From Escherichia phage P896: a DNA stretch of 64,000 nt. The position numbers and the translations under genes were made by a program. A model generated the notes under the pieces. The model was not told the DNA's origin, did no database searches, and worked only from the letters and a program-made list of their open reading frames with translations. Location of the stretch: sequence record OL451225.1, one strand, 5' to 3'. Shown piece after piece: positions 10,118-38,536 of the stretch (positions within the stretch are counted from its first letter, which is position 1; each line of letters starts with the position of its first letter).

Positions 10118-10125
10118 TATAAATA
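10118..10125 (+). promoter_or_regulatory. T4-type late promoter (TATAAATA) for holin gene t
   Basis: Exact TATAAATA 18 nt upstream of the t ATG; SD aaggag. Confidence 0.65.
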
Positions 10126-10143
10126 TCTTTAAAGGAGAAAAGT

Positions 10144-10797
10144 ATGGAACCAAAAGTAGGATTTTCATTATCAGACCTACTTTTTGGACTTCTTGATAGA
10201 ATTTTTAAAGATAATGCGACCGGGAAAGTTGTTTTTTCCCGGGTACTAGTTATTGTTCTATTATTTTTAATGGCGGTAATCTGGTATAAAGGTGATGCAA
10301 TTTTAGATGCGTACAGGGATGCTTCATATGCCTCGTACACAGAAATGATAAGGCAAGACCAGGATAACAGATTTAAAATTGCAGCTATCGAGCAAATCCA
10401 GATAGTTCACTCATCAAGCGGGGCTGACTTCACGGCGATATATTCTTTTAGACCAACTAACCTTAACTACTTTGTGGATATGGTAGGGTACGAGGGGATA
10501 TTACCTGAATCAGTTGATGAAAAAAATTTGGGTGGGTTTCCAATAGATAAGACTTCAGCAGAATATTTGGCGGGGGTTAATGGTAATTATTTTGAATCCA
10601 GTACGGAATCTGTATTCTTACCAACAAAGAAAAAAAGCAGCTTCGCATATATGTTTAGCTGCCCATTCTTTAATTTGGAAAACGTTTATGCAGGTACAGT
10701 CTCGCTGTACTGGTATAAGCAAAAACCTATCCTTGGTTTTGATAGGCTTTCTGCTATGTGTGGACAAGCAGGTCGTACGCTTGGGCGTACACGTTAG
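10144..10797 (+). CDS. t: Holin T (lysis timing / lysis inhibition)
   Basis: 217 aa (T4 T about 218 aa); N-terminal TM segment (VLVIVLLFLMAVIWY) followed by a large periplasmic domain; position after 38. Confidence 0.9.
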   Translation: MEPKVGFSLSDLLFGLLDRIFKDNATGKVVFSRVLVIVLLFLMAVIWYKGDAILDAYRDASYASYTEMIRQDQDNRFKIAAIEQIQIVHSSSGADFTAIYSFRPTNLNYFVDMVGYEGILPESVDEKNLGGFPIDKTSAEYLAGVNGNYFESSTESVFLPTKKKSSFAYMFSCPFFNLENVYAGTVSLYWYKQKPILGFDRLSAMCGQAGRTLGRTR

Positions 10798-17704: not shown

Positions 17705-17738
17705 TTTATTCTCCAGTTTGGTAACTCAGTATGGAATC

Positions 17739-17778
17739 ATTATGCACTGACTCCATACTGATGTACACTACTTTTTAA
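17739..17778 (-). promoter_or_regulatory. Early promoter cassette (TGTACA / 17 bp / CATAAT), PeSL-like
   Basis: Minus strand: aaaaagtagTGTACAtcagtatggagtcagtgCATAATgattccatactgagttacc. Confidence 0.6.
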
Positions 17779-18054
17779 TTAATTGTGCATTTGTTCTTTA
17801 ACTTCTTTATATGCGCCAACTGCATTCACGACCCCAGTAAAATCTGCAGTCCCACGATAGAGATAGAAAGCAATTTCAGTCAGGTGGTAGACTTCAAATT
17901 CTGAAAGATAAACGATAACGTCATAATATGCAACTTGGCCCTGGACTTCGTTGAATACCACATCAAAAATTTCATGGGTTGGAAAATTGATGTTGTTGTT
18001 TTTGAGTGCTTGAATAAGAATTTGTTTGATGTTGTGAGTAGTAACGTGTTCCAT
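17779..18054 (-). CDS. Hypothetical protein
   Basis: Track ORF 17779..18144; likely start is the ATG at 18054 (MEHVTTHNIKQ..., SD GAGGA). Confidence 0.45.
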   Translation of the reverse strand: MEHVTTHNIKQILIQALKNNNINFPTHEIFDVVFNEVQGQVAYYDVIVYLSEFEVYHLTEIAFYLYRGTADFTGVVNAVGAYKEVKEQMHN

Positions 18055-22947: not shown

Positions 22948-23136
22948 TTATTCTACTTTATAGACCTGACCATACGCCATGAAAGTTTCACCTTCCCAGG
23001 TTTCGCACGTGATTGTCACAAATTCTGCAAACAAAGGTTTTTTCTCTGCCCAGAGAAAACCATATTCACCGGTAGCGAGTGTAATCCAGTATTTAGTCAT
23101 ATTGTCTCCTAGTAGCGGGAGAATATTCTCCCACAT
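22948..23136 (-). CDS. Hypothetical protein
   Basis: 62 aa ORF in track, just downstream of gene 39. Confidence 0.4.
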   Translation of the reverse strand: MWENILPLLGDNMTKYWITLATGEYGFLWAEKKPLFAEFVTITCETWEGETFMAYGQVYKVE

Positions 23137-23140
23137 CTAT

Positions 23141-24973
23141 TTATAGCGTCGCATTCATCCAATCTTTACGCTGTTGGGAATCTTTACCGAATAGCATTTC
23201 GAACAGTTCTTTCCAGTTATCAGGCAATTGAACAACTTCGAATACCGGCTCGAGCAATACGCGTTTGTACTCAGAATCTTCCAAAGAACCAAGCCCCTTG
23301 ATATATCGGATGGTGTGCTTCGGAAGTTTATCCTTAGCTTCTTCATAGTCAGGAAGAGAATAGAACCATTCTTGTTTGTCTTTGAGCTGCGCAATAATAA
23401 CAGGAGTTTTCACAAAGCGAATTCGTCCTTCATGGAACAGCTCTGGCCAGTTACTGAAAAACGCCAATAACGATGGATAGATACTACCGACACCATCCAC
23501 ATCCGCATCTGTCATGATAGCAATGTTTCGGTAATTCATATTCTTGGCCGGTTGTCCAATCGTTAACCCAGTAATTGCACACACATCAAAGGCTTCAGCG
23601 TTCTTCATAACTTCAACAGCTTTCAGACCCCATGTGTTTTTAAACTTACCACGTAATGGATAAGCACCTTGCAATTCACGGTCGCGAACCTTAATAAATG
23701 GCCCTGTTGCAGAATCACCTTCGGTCAGGAACAGAGTCGTTTCCAACTTATCATTGCCCCATTCGTTGGCTTTGATATGCTTTTGTACCTTGGCCTTTGA
23801 AGCTTTCTTATTTGCTTTAGTCTCTGCTGCTTTCTCTGCAGCCAATTTACGGGCTAATGCAGCTTCAACAATCGGCATAATCAGCGGTTCATTTTTCAGA
23901 ATAGCTTGTGCGATTTTCTTGGCATCAATCTTGATGTGATTTCGAATTTCACCGGCCGGAGAAGTCAATCGCTCCTTAGTCTGGGAATCAAATCGCATAT
24001 TGCTCATATCGCGGATGAACATAAGCATGGTGAGGCATTCTTTAACTCGTGCCTTGGTCACCTCAATGCCTTTATATTTGCGCTTAATCGCTGGTTGAAG
24101 ATGTTCGCAGATATCATCCATAACACATTCAACGTGGTGCCCGCCATTCTTTGTATGAATGTTGTTGACATAAGTCAACTGACGAAAACCATCCGGGCTA
24201 GTCGTAAAGGCCATCGATACCGTATCAGTTTCCTGGATAACAACTTCGGTTCCAAATTGCTTGGAGAACTTCTTGAAGTTGCCATCAACCTTTTTACCAT
24301 TAAAGGTAAACTGAATATCCGGATAAACAACTGCAAGAGTCTGTAGACGGTCCAATGTAATATCCAGATAAATCTGGGACAGACTATTTTCTTCAAAGTG
24401 ACTAAAGTCTGGAATAAATATAACAGTCGTACCTTTACCCTTTGATTTCTTAGTCGACCAACATTTGTTTTCCATACCGTTGGAGCAGTTAACAGTGATT
24501 TCATTTGCACCATCAGCGGTAATCCCGGTGAACAATACAGAGAAAATATTAGTCAGAGAAGACCCGACGCCATTCATCCCGCCAGTTTTACGTTCAGCAT
24601 CATCGCCAAAGTTGCCACCTGCTTTTGGAATAGTCCATGCTGCAACAGGGCCAGGGATTTGTTCACCGTTTTGGTCTGTAACCATTGCTTGTGGAATACC
24701 ACGGCCATTATCAGAAACCGAAATCTGATTATCTTTAATTTGGACATCAATTTTATTGGCAAATTTAAAACTGGTGCGAATTGCTTCATCAACAGAGTTA
24801 TCGATAATTTCATCAATCAGTTTTACAATACCAGGAACATAGCTTACGGACTTATATTCACCAAACAAGAATCGCTCATGCGCTTCATTTGAACTGGAAC
24901 CAATATACATCCCGGAACGTTTTTTGATATGCTCGACGTCCGAGAGTACTTTAATTTCATTATTAATCATCAT
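23141..24973 (-). CDS. 39: DNA topoisomerase II large subunit, unsplit (T4 gp39 + gp60 equivalent; GyrB-like ATPase plus Toprim)
   Basis: Single 610 aa ORF with GHKL ATPase motifs (IDNSVDEA, DNGRGIP, GGMNGVGSS) and a Toprim-type C-terminal half (LFLTEGDSA...); T4 splits this into 39 (about 516 aa) and 60 (160 aa). Confidence 0.9.
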   Translation of the reverse strand: MMINNEIKVLSDVEHIKKRSGMYIGSSSNEAHERFLFGEYKSVSYVPGIVKLIDEIIDNSVDEAIRTSFKFANKIDVQIKDNQISVSDNGRGIPQAMVTDQNGEQIPGPVAAWTIPKAGGNFGDDAERKTGGMNGVGSSLTNIFSVLFTGITADGANEITVNCSNGMENKCWSTKKSKGKGTTVIFIPDFSHFEENSLSQIYLDITLDRLQTLAVVYPDIQFTFNGKKVDGNFKKFSKQFGTEVVIQETDTVSMAFTTSPDGFRQLTYVNNIHTKNGGHHVECVMDDICEHLQPAIKRKYKGIEVTKARVKECLTMLMFIRDMSNMRFDSQTKERLTSPAGEIRNHIKIDAKKIAQAILKNEPLIMPIVEAALARKLAAEKAAETKANKKASKAKVQKHIKANEWGNDKLETTLFLTEGDSATGPFIKVRDRELQGAYPLRGKFKNTWGLKAVEVMKNAEAFDVCAITGLTIGQPAKNMNYRNIAIMTDADVDGVGSIYPSLLAFFSNWPELFHEGRIRFVKTPVIIAQLKDKQEWFYSLPDYEEAKDKLPKHTIRYIKGLGSLEDSEYKRVLLEPVFEVVQLPDNWKELFEMLFGKDSQQRKDWMNATL

Positions 24974-34618: not shown

Positions 34619-34900
34619 TTACAATTTGGCGGCTTGGACTGCTTTATTGGCTTCAGTCATTTTAGCTAGATTTTCAGCAGTAGGATTGGCAATGTATTCG
34701 GCTGTAGCTTGAGCAAAAACATTATGAGTTTCGATTACATTTTTAGCATTTTCAGTATTCATATCAATTTCTTGTTTAGATAAATTTTTTAGTTGATTGG
34801 CTAAGAGTTCTACAAAGATTTCAACATTAGCGTTTTCAATTATAGCATTAATATGCTTCTTACGAGCTTTCTTAAGTTGACGTTTATTTAAACGAGCCAT
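34619..34900 (-). CDS. Hypothetical protein (soc.1 position)
   Basis: 93 aa ORF in track. Confidence 0.45.
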   Translation of the reverse strand: MARLNKRQLKKARKKHINAIIENANVEIFVELLANQLKNLSKQEIDMNTENAKNVIETHNVFAQATAEYIANPTAENLAKMTEANKAVQAAKL

Positions 34901-35418
34901 TAATAACCTCGGTCTTGGCGAGCAAAGTTCTCGGCATTTTTCAGGTAATACAGTTTAAAGATTTCTTCTGCTGTCAGACCAAGACCATGGAACATATTCA
35001 GAACAAAGTGCAGGATATCAATCATTTCGAATTTAATTTCGAGCTGGTCTTCAGGAGACAATTCATCAATACGACGATTACGGAATTCAGCATGTTGCGC
35101 TTTCCACGGCTTCCAGCAACTGGATGCGGCTTTCTCACCATTAGACATGCCACCGAGCGAAGTCAGAAGTTCACGGAATTCGTCGTCGACATAATCTTTC
35201 TGGTTACGAAGCCATGCAACAACATCGCCTGCGGTTGCCAATTCATCTGGATGTGTGTTATATTCTGGTTTTTCTGTAGCCAGACGAACCTGCAAAGATT
35301 TCTGCATATCAAGCATAATCTGCAGAGGGTCATCATTGCCTTTTAGGACATCATTATACGCATCTTGCGCTTTATCAACACCAGCAATCAGTTGAGAACA
35401 CTCGTTAAAATGAGCCAT
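34900..35418 (-). CDS. 56: dCTP pyrophosphatase (dCTPase/dUTPase) gp56
   Basis: Track ORF 34900..35436; likely start at ATG 35418 (MAHFNECSQLIAGVDKAQ...); MAHFNEC, DPLQ.MLDMQ, ETAGDVV.W, IDDEFRELLTSLG, SPEDQLEIKFE..DI.HFVLNMF and EEIFKLYYLKN.ENFARQDRGY blocks match T4 gp56 as I recall it. Confidence 0.88.
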   Translation of the reverse strand: MAHFNECSQLIAGVDKAQDAYNDVLKGNDDPLQIMLDMQKSLQVRLATEKPEYNTHPDELATAGDVVAWLRNQKDYVDDEFRELLTSLGGMSNGEKAASSCWKPWKAQHAEFRNRRIDELSPEDQLEIKFEMIDILHFVLNMFHGLGLTAEEIFKLYYLKNAENFARQDRGY

Positions 35419-35502
35419 TATATTTTTCCTTATCAATTCATATTGTTTGTATGTTAATTATATCATATTGGTTTAAAGCATAAATACAAGAAAGGAGGAT
35501 GT

Positions 35503-35700
35503 ATGCTCAAACTATCTAGTCTAATTCAAGCCATCAAAGGCAGTCGTAAGCGAACGATTCTGGTCCTTTCGATACTCTGTTTTGTTCTACTCTGGAATTT
35601 CATTGTTGTCCCTATTGCATTGGCACATGGTGTTATATTGCCAGTCGTCGCGCTCGAATCAGTTGTAGATGTTTCACTGGCATTAATCGGCCTTATATAA
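35503..35700 (+). CDS. Small two-TM membrane protein on the opposite (+) strand
   Basis: 65 aa ORF with a strong SD (aaaggagg, 5 nt before the ATG); hydrophobic segments TILVLSILCFVLLWNFIVVPIALA and VVDVSLALIGLI; the only plausible + strand gene inside the minus-strand early block. Confidence 0.45.
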   Translation: MLKLSSLIQAIKGSRKRTILVLSILCFVLLWNFIVVPIALAHGVILPVVALESVVDVSLALIGLI

Positions 35701-35808
35701 ATGGAACTTACTGGTTGTGCCTATCGCTGCAACACAAGGGGTGCACTTACCCCAGGTCACAATAGAACATATTCATTCCATCATCGGTTACTTTACCGGA
35801 ATCCCTTC

Positions 35809-36837
35809 CTAAACTTTTGCGTACTTCGAAAGTCGCATTCTCGCCATCAATCCTTGAGCAACGTTATCGGCCATATATGATTCGATTTGTTCAGGGGTTG
35901 CCCCTTCTGATTTAACCATCTCATTTATGTCTTTCGTATGCCATGGTGCATTGTCCCAGAACATAACAGCTTCGCCAGCTTCAACGAGCTTCTTCATACG
36001 TTTAATCGTATCCGGATGTCTTGGCTCGTTGTCCATTACCCATACTCTTGTTTCAGCATAAGGAACAGCTTCCAATGCCAATGTGCCACCGGTTATCGCA
36101 ATGCTGTTAGGGATAAACAAACTATCAATTGGACCTTCCATTACCCATACGCGTTTACGCTCATCAATCTTGTCTACTCCATAGACTTTGGAAGCTTCTG
36201 GGTGAGCTTTGATTGTGATATATTTTTGTGGTGCATCTTTGCGAAGAGCTCGTCCTTGGAAAGATTCGATTTCTTTTTTGCCGTTGAAGATAGGAATAAC
36301 CAAGCGTGGTTCATTCGTTTCATTCTTATACGTCCCAGGATTGACGGAGTTAACTAATGCAGGCCATTTGTTTGTAAACCATAACCGGTTCCAAACATTG
36401 CTAGGAATACACCGACTTTTTACATACTTAATTATCGGATGTGCTTCTGGTAAAGTATCGAGTCTTTCACAAAAAGCAAGCTGCTCGATAACCGGAGTTT
36501 TTTCTGGTTCTTTCGGAGTTTCTGCAACTTCATTGCGCTGTCTGCCAAAGGCATTCTCCTTATACTTCTCAACCATATATTCCCGGTGTAAATCCGGCTC
36601 AAACTCTTTTATGTATTTGCTTATATGCGTGGAGTAGTCACAGTTAAAACATTTCACGTAAACCGCGCCATCAGACGGATTGGTATACGCCCAGAATCTG
36701 GCTTTATGTGAATCTTTCTGGGAGTCGCCACAAACTTTACATCTGCAGTTTGCCTTAAATGTGCTCCCGGTGACTTCTCTATAACGTGGTTGATACGATA
36801 AAGCTCTGATTGCAAATTCTCTATCAATATATGACAT
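35809..36837 (-). CDS. 61: DNA primase gp61
   Basis: 342 aa (T4 gp61 342 aa); zinc-binding CxxC...C.NC motif at the N-terminus and a Toprim region (SFQGRAL.KDAPQKYITI, EGPIDSLFI, RVWV.DNEPRHPDTIKRM) matching T4 gp61 as I recall it. Confidence 0.92.
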   Translation of the reverse strand: MSYIDREFAIRALSYQPRYREVTGSTFKANCRCKVCGDSQKDSHKARFWAYTNPSDGAVYVKCFNCDYSTHISKYIKEFEPDLHREYMVEKYKENAFGRQRNEVAETPKEPEKTPVIEQLAFCERLDTLPEAHPIIKYVKSRCIPSNVWNRLWFTNKWPALVNSVNPGTYKNETNEPRLVIPIFNGKKEIESFQGRALRKDAPQKYITIKAHPEASKVYGVDKIDERKRVWVMEGPIDSLFIPNSIAITGGTLALEAVPYAETRVWVMDNEPRHPDTIKRMKKLVEAGEAVMFWDNAPWHTKDINEMVKSEGATPEQIESYMADNVAQGLMARMRLSKYAKV

Positions 36838-37056
36838 AGTTTCCTCATTTCAATGGCCCCGAAGGACCATTATACTGTAGGTTTATCGTCTTTGTTCTTA
36901 CGCTTTTTTGATGGGATTTGTTCAGGGCCTTTATTGACAACTGCCCCGGAAGTGGTACCTGTTGTGATATTAGTTGGGTTTCCACCTGCATCACCTGCAA
37001 CCATATCTTCGTTGATAAAATCTTTGAATGTTTTCATAACACCCCCTTTCCGCTAT

Positions 37057-37248
37057 TTATACAACAAAGATAGCTTTATCACCATTTGCATCAGTCACTT
37101 CATAAGTGTCTTCATGATACAACGGAATAATCCAGGTAACACCATCATCAGCGATAACATGGATTGCTTCTTGGTCTTGCGACACGATTTCATATTCTTC
37201 AAAAAGCTGGAAGACCGAAATCTTAGAGCCCGTACACATTGCACTCAT
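37057..37248 (-). CDS. Hypothetical protein
   Basis: 63 aa ORF in track. Confidence 0.4.
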   Translation of the reverse strand: MSAMCTGSKISVFQLFEEYEIVSQDQEAIHVIADDGVTWIIPLYHEDTYEVTDANGDKAIFVV

Positions 37249-38242: not shown

Positions 38243-38536
38243 TTATTCACCTGTAACCCATTGAACAATTTTGCTATTGTCAAATGAAGCATCGCAATAC
38301 AGAATATAGTTATACTGCATAACGTCACCAGAAGACAATTGGTCAGATACTTCTTTAACCATATCAGGGCGGTCACGTTTGGTTATGTTCATGATATCAG
38401 CACGAATCTGGGTTTCAACTTCAGATTGCTCTGCTGTCATAGACCATTCACAAAGGTTTTTATCAAGCCCAGCAGTAACTGGAGCTGTACCACATGATGC
38501 TACGGTAAGAATTGCTGCAATAATTAACTTTTTCAT
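38243..38536 (-). CDS. sp: Periplasmic lipoprotein, Spackle (Sp)-like by size and position
   Basis: 97 aa with signal peptide/lipobox MKKLIIAAILTVASCG; T4 Sp (61.3) is a 97 aa secreted protein in the 61-41 interval. Assignment is by size and position only. Confidence 0.45.
   Translation of the reverse strand: MKKLIIAAILTVASCGTAPVTAGLDKNLCEWSMTAEQSEVETQIRADIMNITKRDRPDMVKEVSDQLSSGDVMQYNYILYCDASFDNSKIVQWVTGE

Follow-up and report, generated by a model that had tools for sequence, protein, structure and literature searches.

The + strand open reading frame between genes 56 and 61 is best explained as a late gene for a signal-anchored inner-membrane protein that belongs to a T-even (Tevenvirinae) family and is followed downstream by a decayed second copy (probability approximately 0.75). 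The gene-level part of this reading is firmer, and the frame (35503..35700, hereafter copy A) is almost certainly a genuine protein-coding gene for a small membrane protein. The window (the whole 64,000-nt stretch analyzed) comes from a T-even phage of the genus Gaprivervirus, and the interval and its flanks were 99% identical to those of Shigella phage SP18, Escherichia phage 212, and DCP80.

Coding status, distribution, and genomic position

Copy A begins with ATG, encodes 65 aa, and belongs to phrog_2024, the family of RB32ORF030w, RB69ORF029w, and VR7ORF033w. Both of its neighbors lie on the minus strand. The left flank is gene 56 (dCTPase; 34900..35421; phrog_173, E = 3.7e-44), where residues 1-171 of T4 gp56 matched 35418..34903 of the window with 70% identity (tblastn). 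The right flank, convergent with copy A, is gene 61 (DNA primase; 35809..36837; phrog_47, E = 2.9e-94), with 60% identity to T4 gp61 (tblastn against the window). A first-pass annotation, made from the sequence alone, had the strand, the coordinates, and the 65-aa length right, but the interval measures 387 bp rather than 370 bp. Its strong Shine-Dalgarno element was likewise present (AAAGGAGG, 35491..35498, + strand), at a spacing, read from the sequence, of 4 nt from the ATG and not 5 nt. An element of the form (A/G)GGAG(G/A) preceded the start codon in every homologue examined.

Residues 1-65 of the copy A protein aligned to positions 1-65 of the 65-position phrog_2024 profile (E = 1.2e-26). 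Frame +1 was the sole stop-free frame of the six in 7 Gaprivervirus and 3 Tequatrovirus genomes. The pN/pS ratio of copy A was 0.33 in Gaprivervirus (n = 7) and 0.13 in Tequatrovirus (n = 3), and variable sites were distributed over codon positions 1, 2, and 3 as 20/5/24 and 6/1/10, respectively. Pairwise omega was 0.20 between the window and TH15 (Sd = 21.3, Nd = 15.7) and 0.10 between the T4 and fPS-2 homologues. Between genera, synonymous sites were saturated and protein identity was still approximately 50%. The family match and the purifying selection confirm the earlier proposal that a small hydrophobic protein gene is encoded antisense to the early block. Loss or disruption of the frame in close relatives would have spoken against that proposal; copy A was intact in every relative examined.

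Searches of phage records (tblastn) returned 713 records with a match of the copy A type (A-type) and 115 records with a match of the type of the second copy described below (B-type). The A-type records were mostly from Tequatrovirus and Mosigvirus, and 680 of the 713 were below 60% identity. By a rough count, approximately 790 records carried a family homologue and approximately 950 carried a gp61 at least 60% identical; the small gene appears to be common among phages sharing a closely related primase. Family proteins were 62-74 aa long. The family is narrow: of 1.84 billion representative proteins searched by profile, only five were real representatives, and a repeat protein (P0037) was a spurious match. 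One of the five, P0038, was the sole homologue detected outside T4-like phages and lay on a siphophage-like contig.

The copy A protein is already deposited as hypothetical, members of its family carry that label in hundreds of T4-like phages, and the family is already catalogued as a PHROG. Protein P0001 (hypothetical protein, Escherichia phage P896) was 100% identical to the copy A product, and 34 further database representatives were 83-98% identical to it. The annotators of RB32, RB69, and VR7 flagged the family years ago: RB14 lists its homologue as RB32ORF030w ("similar to RB69ORF029w") and VR7 lists its own as VR7ORF033w. A literature search found no paper naming RB69ORF029w, RB32ORF030w, VR7ORF033w, or phrog_2024, and searches on T4 ribosome profiling and unannotated genes returned nothing relevant. 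A T4 dRNA-seq preprint gives 150 phage start sites in total, of which 22 are antisense (bioRxiv 10.1101/2024.04.04.588121).

The T4 record confirmed that dam lies between genes 56 and 61, as the first-pass annotation had stated. Its further suggestion, that the window frame occupies the place of dam, does not hold, because T4 carries both. A homologue of 66 aa, 52% identical to the window protein, is encoded at 17738..17938 (+ strand) of AF158101.6 and NC_000866.4. It sits in the 309-bp gap between dam and gene 61, where neither record has an annotated feature, and its stop codon overlaps that of gene 61 by 4 nt. No Dam homologue was found anywhere in the 64-kb window (tblastn with T4 Dam, E ≤ 1e-3); the same search against the window matched T4 gp56, gp61, gp61.1, Sp, Dmd, and Soc. 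The T4 reference records thus miss a conserved gene, and screens built on that annotation may skip it.

The small gene was on the + strand and tail-to-tail with gene 61 in every locus examined, with the same position in 10 genera (the loci included those of T4, RB14, fPS-2, Mosigvirus, Moonvirus, Kanagawavirus, Dhakavirus, Marfavirus, Mosugukvirus, and Gelderlandvirus). The space between gene 56 and the small gene is a variable slot, of which dam is one of several inserts. T4 has dam there, fPS-2 has a homing endonuclease, and Kanagawavirus, Moonvirus, and Marfavirus have a MazG-like pyrophosphohydrolase; the slot was empty in RB14, Mosigvirus, Dhakavirus, and the window.

A second copy and its decay

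In most genera, the small gene overlaps the gene 61 stop codon, whereas copy A of the window stands 108 bp from gene 61. What separates the two is the remnant of a second copy, which fills the rest of the interval and had been missed by the first-pass annotation. Alignment of the DNA with MN01 and TH15 placed this copy B pseudogene at 35702..35812 (+ strand), comprising codons 31-66 and the stop codon, the latter sharing 4 nt with the stop of gene 61. The Shine-Dalgarno element, the start codon, and the first 30 codons are missing, having been lost in a 97-bp deletion flanked by direct repeats of (G/A)TGGAACT. A terminator-like hairpin on the minus strand (35753..35738), with a poor T-run, was observed inside the remnant.

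Two tandem genes were present in the Gaprivervirus genomes MN01, TH15, UPEC01, VR25, and VR26. Copy B of these genomes, intact at 66 aa in MN01 and TH15, starts 9 nt after the copy A stop codon and overlaps the gene 61 stop. The MN01 protein (QIN95559) matched phrog_2024 (E = 1e-27) and, when used as a tblastn query, matched SP18-like genomes over residues 28-66 only. Copy B was only approximately 30% identical to copy A. The two types share architecture, gene position, and PHROG, but the B-type carries an Asp within the membrane helix, and its C-terminal segment is polar, rich in His, and not transmembrane-like. The examined genomes of Dhakavirus, Marfavirus, Kanagawavirus, Mosugukvirus, and Gelderlandvirus carried the B-type as their sole copy.

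Two intact B copies were under purifying selection (omega = 0.07), and judged from the lesions in the sequences, copy B has been lost independently in several Gaprivervirus lineages. Five different lesions were seen: the deletion in the window, a stop at codon 2 with a 2-bp deletion (VR20), a 1-bp insertion (VR7), loss of the start codon with two deletions (EAWsc9), and a stop at codon 2 with a deletion and an adjacent homing endonuclease gene (RZ). Copy A was intact in all of these genomes. Repeated independent loss of B with retention of A suggests an overlap in function between the copies and a need for one of them. The pair amounts to a natural redundancy experiment.

Expression signals

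A late-promoter-like motif, cATAAATA, was found at 35479..35486 (+ strand), 16 nt before the ATG, and it matched the T4 late consensus TATAAATA at 7 of 8 positions. That consensus occupies -13 to -6, and its T at -13 is variable and poorly conserved in T4-like phages (PMC1524935). The base at -13, a T in the consensus, was C in the window and G in T4. An exact ATAAATA occurred 13-22 nt before the start codon in nine lineages (Gaprivervirus, T4, RB14/fPS-2, Mosigvirus, Kanagawavirus, Dhakavirus, Marfavirus, Mosugukvirus, and a metagenomic relative), among which the flanking sequence could not be aligned. The Dhakavirus, Marfavirus, and Mosugukvirus loci had been fetched as a test of this prediction, and the motif was present in all three. 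Moonvirus and Gelderlandvirus had ATTAAATA in its place.

The ATAAATA heptamer was depleted in the window as a whole (11 sites; 20.7 ± 3.7 expected). At 8 of the 11 sites, an open reading frame of at least 50 aa started within approximately 40 nt, and these included genes 34, t, soc, and 49. In T4, these four genes (encoding the tail fiber, the T holin, Soc, and endonuclease VII) are transcribed late, and T4-type late transcription is coupled to replication and depends on gp55, gp33, and gp45. A scan of the interval found no early promoter for the small gene. Copy A is probably transcribed late, and the earlier suggestion of a late-expressed membrane factor fits the conserved motif. Given the 16-nt distance to the ATG, the predicted transcript would start near 35492, close to the strong Shine-Dalgarno element, with a leader of only approximately 11 nt; the shortness of this leader, the base other than T at -13, and the ATTAAATA of two lineages count against the late reading. 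The position of this conserved late motif within an early region is worth recording in itself.

On the opposite strand, a pattern match to the T4 middle-promoter consensus predicted a MotA-type middle promoter for gene 56 (35457..35480, minus strand). Its MotA box, TGCTTTA, is at minus-strand 35474-35480 and its -10 element, TATAAT, at minus-strand 35457-35462, with an 11-nt spacer. This predicted promoter overlaps the + strand late motif by 2 nt, and in fPS-2 a "predicted middle promoter" is annotated at the corresponding position.

These arrangements raise the question of whether the functional product is a late antisense RNA that shuts down early messages, the reading frame being incidental. 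The motif is directed towards gene 61 and overlaps the predicted gene 56 promoter, a scan of the interval beyond copy A showed no + strand terminator, and in most genera the 4-nt overlap with the gene 61 stop leaves no space for one, so that a late transcript would run antisense into gene 61. Against an RNA function stand the frame-specific purifying selection, with approximately 50% protein identity retained between genera at saturated synonymous change, the strong and correctly spaced Shine-Dalgarno element of every lineage, the conserved length of 62-74 aa, and the invariant W, P, G, and P residues. A noncoding antisense RNA as the sole product was rejected on the frame-specific selection and the conserved Shine-Dalgarno element, and we regard this reading as highly improbable. 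An antisense effect could coexist with a functional protein, and transcription into gene 61 may be a side-effect or a second function.

Even less probable, to the point of being very nearly dismissible, is a type I toxin-like membrane peptide restrained by an antisense RNA. The product is small and hydrophobic and is encoded antisense to the flanking transcription, but against this stand the strong Shine-Dalgarno element, the dedicated promoter of late type, and the shortness of the predicted leader. Rfam detected no RNA family in the interval, and the gene keeps a fixed genomic position in strictly lytic phages. The first-pass annotation had offered a toxin-like peptide as one option; nothing in the analysis favored it.

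Protein topology, candidate functions, and known systems

The window protein has a basic N-terminus (net charge +5), followed by a 19-residue hydrophobic stretch containing W31-N32, by P37, and by a turn at G43 and P47. Its C-terminal helix is short and acidic, an acidic residue stands at position 52, and the sequence ends in LIGLI. Among 12 diverse members, W31, P37, G43, and P47 were invariant and N32 was nearly so. All family members had an N-terminal net charge of +2 to +5. The hydrophobic stretch was 18-19 residues long in 14 of 15 members (16 residues in P0038) and was followed by a Pro at a fixed position. After this Pro, all members continued with x-A-x-[A/S/T]-x-G-x3-P and a tail of 21-33 residues with a conserved acidic residue.

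Two hydrophobic segments were indeed present in the window protein (mean Kyte-Doolittle 2.76 over residues 19-40, 2.30 over residues 44-65), and the hydrophobic tail explains why two transmembrane segments had been proposed. That topology is doubtful. The B-type tail is polar (mean Kyte-Doolittle 0.43, summed Hessa-scale insertion energy +16.6), so tail hydrophobicity is not a property of the family. The AlphaFold2 model (17-sequence alignment, mean pLDDT 87) had a helix at residues 2-41, a loop at 42-50, and a helix at 51-62. The first helix (40 residues) was the only one of membrane length, and the last, with 12 residues, was too short to span a bilayer. A two-transmembrane hairpin was rejected as the family topology on the polar B-type segment and the single long helix of the model. 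Under the positive-inside rule, the N-terminus would face the cytoplasm, with a single signal-anchor and a C-terminal hook at the periplasmic face; a signal-anchor helix followed by a short C-terminal helix is the likely arrangement, which the model and the hydropathy of the family favor over two transmembrane segments.

The same N-terminal region could be read as a cleavable leader. Cleavage would remove the N-terminal 41 residues, between A-L-A and H-G, and free a 24-residue acidic, hydrophobic peptide in the periplasm. The P-I-A-L-A stretch before H-G in the window protein, a conserved motif, does resemble a signal-peptidase site, with a basic n-region, a hydrophobic core, and a P at -5; of 15 members, 14 have A at -3 and all have A, S, or T at -1. 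The AlphaFold helix ends exactly at A41. However, a core of 18-19 residues in 14 of the 15 (16 in P0038) has the length of a transmembrane segment and exceeds that of typical signal peptides. The conserved W-N, joined by an Asp in the B-type, would be unusual in a disposable leader, and the T found at -1 in 7 of 15 members is a poor signal-peptidase residue. Secretion of a processed peptide is accordingly quite unlikely.

We also considered whether the copy A product is a holin or pinholin-like protein that accumulates late in the inner membrane and then forms holes. It is a small membrane protein encoded behind a late-type promoter and a strong Shine-Dalgarno element, the EAWsc9 record reads "holin family protein", and UniRef calls the OE5505 homologue "Holin". 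Yet a scan of 12 diverse family members gave no match to a Pfam holin model at a cutoff as loose as E ≤ 10. With its LIGLI terminus, the protein lacks a charged C-terminal tail, the second segment of the B-type is not transmembrane-like, and the model has one membrane-length helix. Its neighbors are genes 56 and 61, with no endolysin or spanin gene, and the canonical T holin is encoded at 10144..10797 (Pfam Phage_holin_T, E = 5e-68) behind its own TATAAATA. T4 t mutants do not lyse, and a second sufficient holin is therefore not expected. The holin reading, rejected for want of a holin-model match, a charged tail, and a lysis cassette and because T is encoded elsewhere, is improbable.

Other searches gave no functional lead. 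Scans of the frame and diverse members against Pfam, NCBIfam, and PADLOC returned only meaningless matches to P-type ATPase transmembrane segments and COX7B. A sequence profile search of the PDB gave only noise (E approximately 0.5), and a Foldseek search of the AlphaFold model against BFVD and the PDB retrieved only family members, one of them labeled "Holin". The database labels "holin", "dCTP pyrophosphatase", and "DNA packaging ATPase" carried by family members are unsupported.

A superinfection-exclusion (Imm-like) protein of the inner membrane, blocking DNA entry from later phages, would agree with conserved residues at the predicted periplasmic face of a small inner-membrane protein. 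It would also agree with the context of P0038, whose gene follows a tail-tip gene and precedes a serine recombinase gene. The region between tail-tip and recombinase genes often houses accessory ("moron") and exclusion genes. No endolysin was recognizable near P0038, and its context does not decide between a lysis and an accessory role. However, the T4 exclusion genes imm and sp are early genes, whereas copy A carries a motif of late type and the scan found no early promoter for it. There was also no sequence or fold similarity to known exclusion proteins, and PADLOC gave no match. Exclusion in this Imm-like form is unlikely.

The late signal-anchored protein remains the preferred reading. Its late (gp55)-type nATAAATA would drive a small gene opposite to the early block from a transcript with a very short leader. 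The product would be a bitopic inner-membrane protein. Its basic, amphipathic N-terminus would lie in the cytoplasm, a single signal-anchor helix of constant length would bear the conserved W-N, and the periplasmic face would hold the conserved turn (P-x-A-x-[A/S/T]-x-G-x3-P) together with a short, acidic helix. The clustering of invariant residues at the periplasmic end points to the binding of a membrane or periplasmic partner late in infection. The role we would prefer is envelope modulation, either of lysis timing or lysis inhibition around the T holin or as late exclusion of incoming DNA; assigning a specific role of this kind in the late envelope programme is a tentative guess. More doubtful again is that the family is an unrecognized late T-even envelope component whose periplasmic hook binds the T holin/RI machinery or blocks DNA. 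If so, it would be a new player in a system thought to be genetically complete. Speaking against the preferred reading, T4 lysis genetics is not known to require an additional factor.

The closest counterparts of copy A are its own relatives. The T4 homologue, RB32ORF030w, RB69ORF029w, and VR7ORF033w have in common with it the size, the tail-to-tail position with gene 61, the upstream nATAAATA and Shine-Dalgarno element, and the motif W-N...P...G...P...(L/M)(E/D). T4 T (Phage_holin_T) and class II holins or pinholins such as S21 are also small late inner-membrane proteins, and an N-in orientation, predicted for copy A, would be shared with T. T4 Imm, Sp, and RI are likewise small phage proteins at the inner membrane or periplasm. 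RI has an N-terminal signal-anchor followed by a periplasmic part and in this resembles the predicted topology of copy A. Imm, Sp, and RI nonetheless belong to different families: copy A matched phrog_2024 only, and sp was present separately in the window at 38536..38246 (tblastn).

The T4 counterpart and its naming in public records

T4 carries a conserved member of the small-gene family (phrog_2024) as an ORF of 66 aa on the + strand, located at 17738..17938 in AF158101.6 and NC_000866.4 (3492..3692 in the T4 locus, L001) and preceded by gATAAATA and AAAGGAGGA. The 309-bp gap between dam and gene 61 is without annotation in both of these T4 reference records, and studies that lean on the T4 reference gene list may overlook the ORF. 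Unsupported product names were found on family members elsewhere (loci L012 1705..1902 and L020 1201..1425; hit H102, from UPEC01; protein P0065). The UPEC01 member is named "DNA packaging ATPase" and the CGG4-1 member "dCTP pyrophosphatase"; the EAWsc9 member is labelled "holin family protein" and the UniRef name for the OE5505 member is "Holin"; none of these names is supported.

Neighboring genes of the family

The space separating gene 56 from the small gene was hypervariable among the five loci compared (L001, L003, L004, L005, and L018). It is filled by dam in T4 and by a homing endonuclease in fPS-2, and Kanagawavirus, Moonvirus, and Marfavirus have a second MazG-like NTP pyrophosphohydrolase there. 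In RZ (L013), the small gene and gene 61 are separated by a gene that adjoins gene 61 and that the RefSeq copy labels a homing endonuclease; going by feature names alone, DK-13 and P8 have the same arrangement.

The only member found outside T4-like phages was P0038 (69 aa), on a siphophage-like contig (L014 3260..5082; Logan SRR23468712). Its gene comes after that for a 1229-aa tail-tip protein. The upstream flank also holds an endonuclease VII-like gene and a gene for a 94-aa protein with TM and coiled-coil segments; downstream are two unknowns (179 aa and 105 aa) and then a serine recombinase. This gene context suggests that the small gene moved horizontally into a temperate siphophage.

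Promoter-like and terminator-like elements in the window

On the − strand at 35457..35480, a MotA box (TGCTTTA) is followed after 11 nt by TATAAT, resembling a middle promoter for gene 56. This putative promoter and the + strand late motif stand back-to-back with a 2-nt overlap, and judging from their sequences the two look like a compact divergent promoter pair. Within the copy B remnant, the − strand at 35738..35753 reads GGGGTAAGTGCACCCC, a terminator-like hairpin downstream of gene 61 that is followed by TTGTGTT; the opposite strand codes for QGVHLPQ in intact copies. The hairpin may have arisen by chance, or the sequence may serve both purposes.

In P896, late starts are well marked by the sequence TATAAATA. 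It lies 18 nt ahead of the ATG of the T holin gene (217 aa; 10119..10797 with its motif, + strand; Pfam Phage_holin_T, E 5e-68) and at tail-fibre-like genes (609 and 5686, + strand). It also occurs at 23138..23145 on the − strand; the ORF that starts 37 nt further on (23100..22948, − strand; 50 aa, beginning MTKYWITLATGEYGF) has an AGGAG. A perfect copy (37054..37061, − strand) is situated 16 nt ahead of the start of the gp61.1 homologue (37037..36870, − strand; 55 aa, 75% identity to T4 gp61.1), and because of it this small gene inside the early block may also have a late promoter.

The gap between soc and gene 56

In the window, an ORF of 93 aa (34619..34900, − strand) separates soc from gene 56. 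Its similarity to phrog_5782 (E 4e-15), a family described as "virion structural protein," is confined to residues 1-49. A hypothetical protein of equal length is annotated at this position in MN01; T4 and VR7 have segF there.
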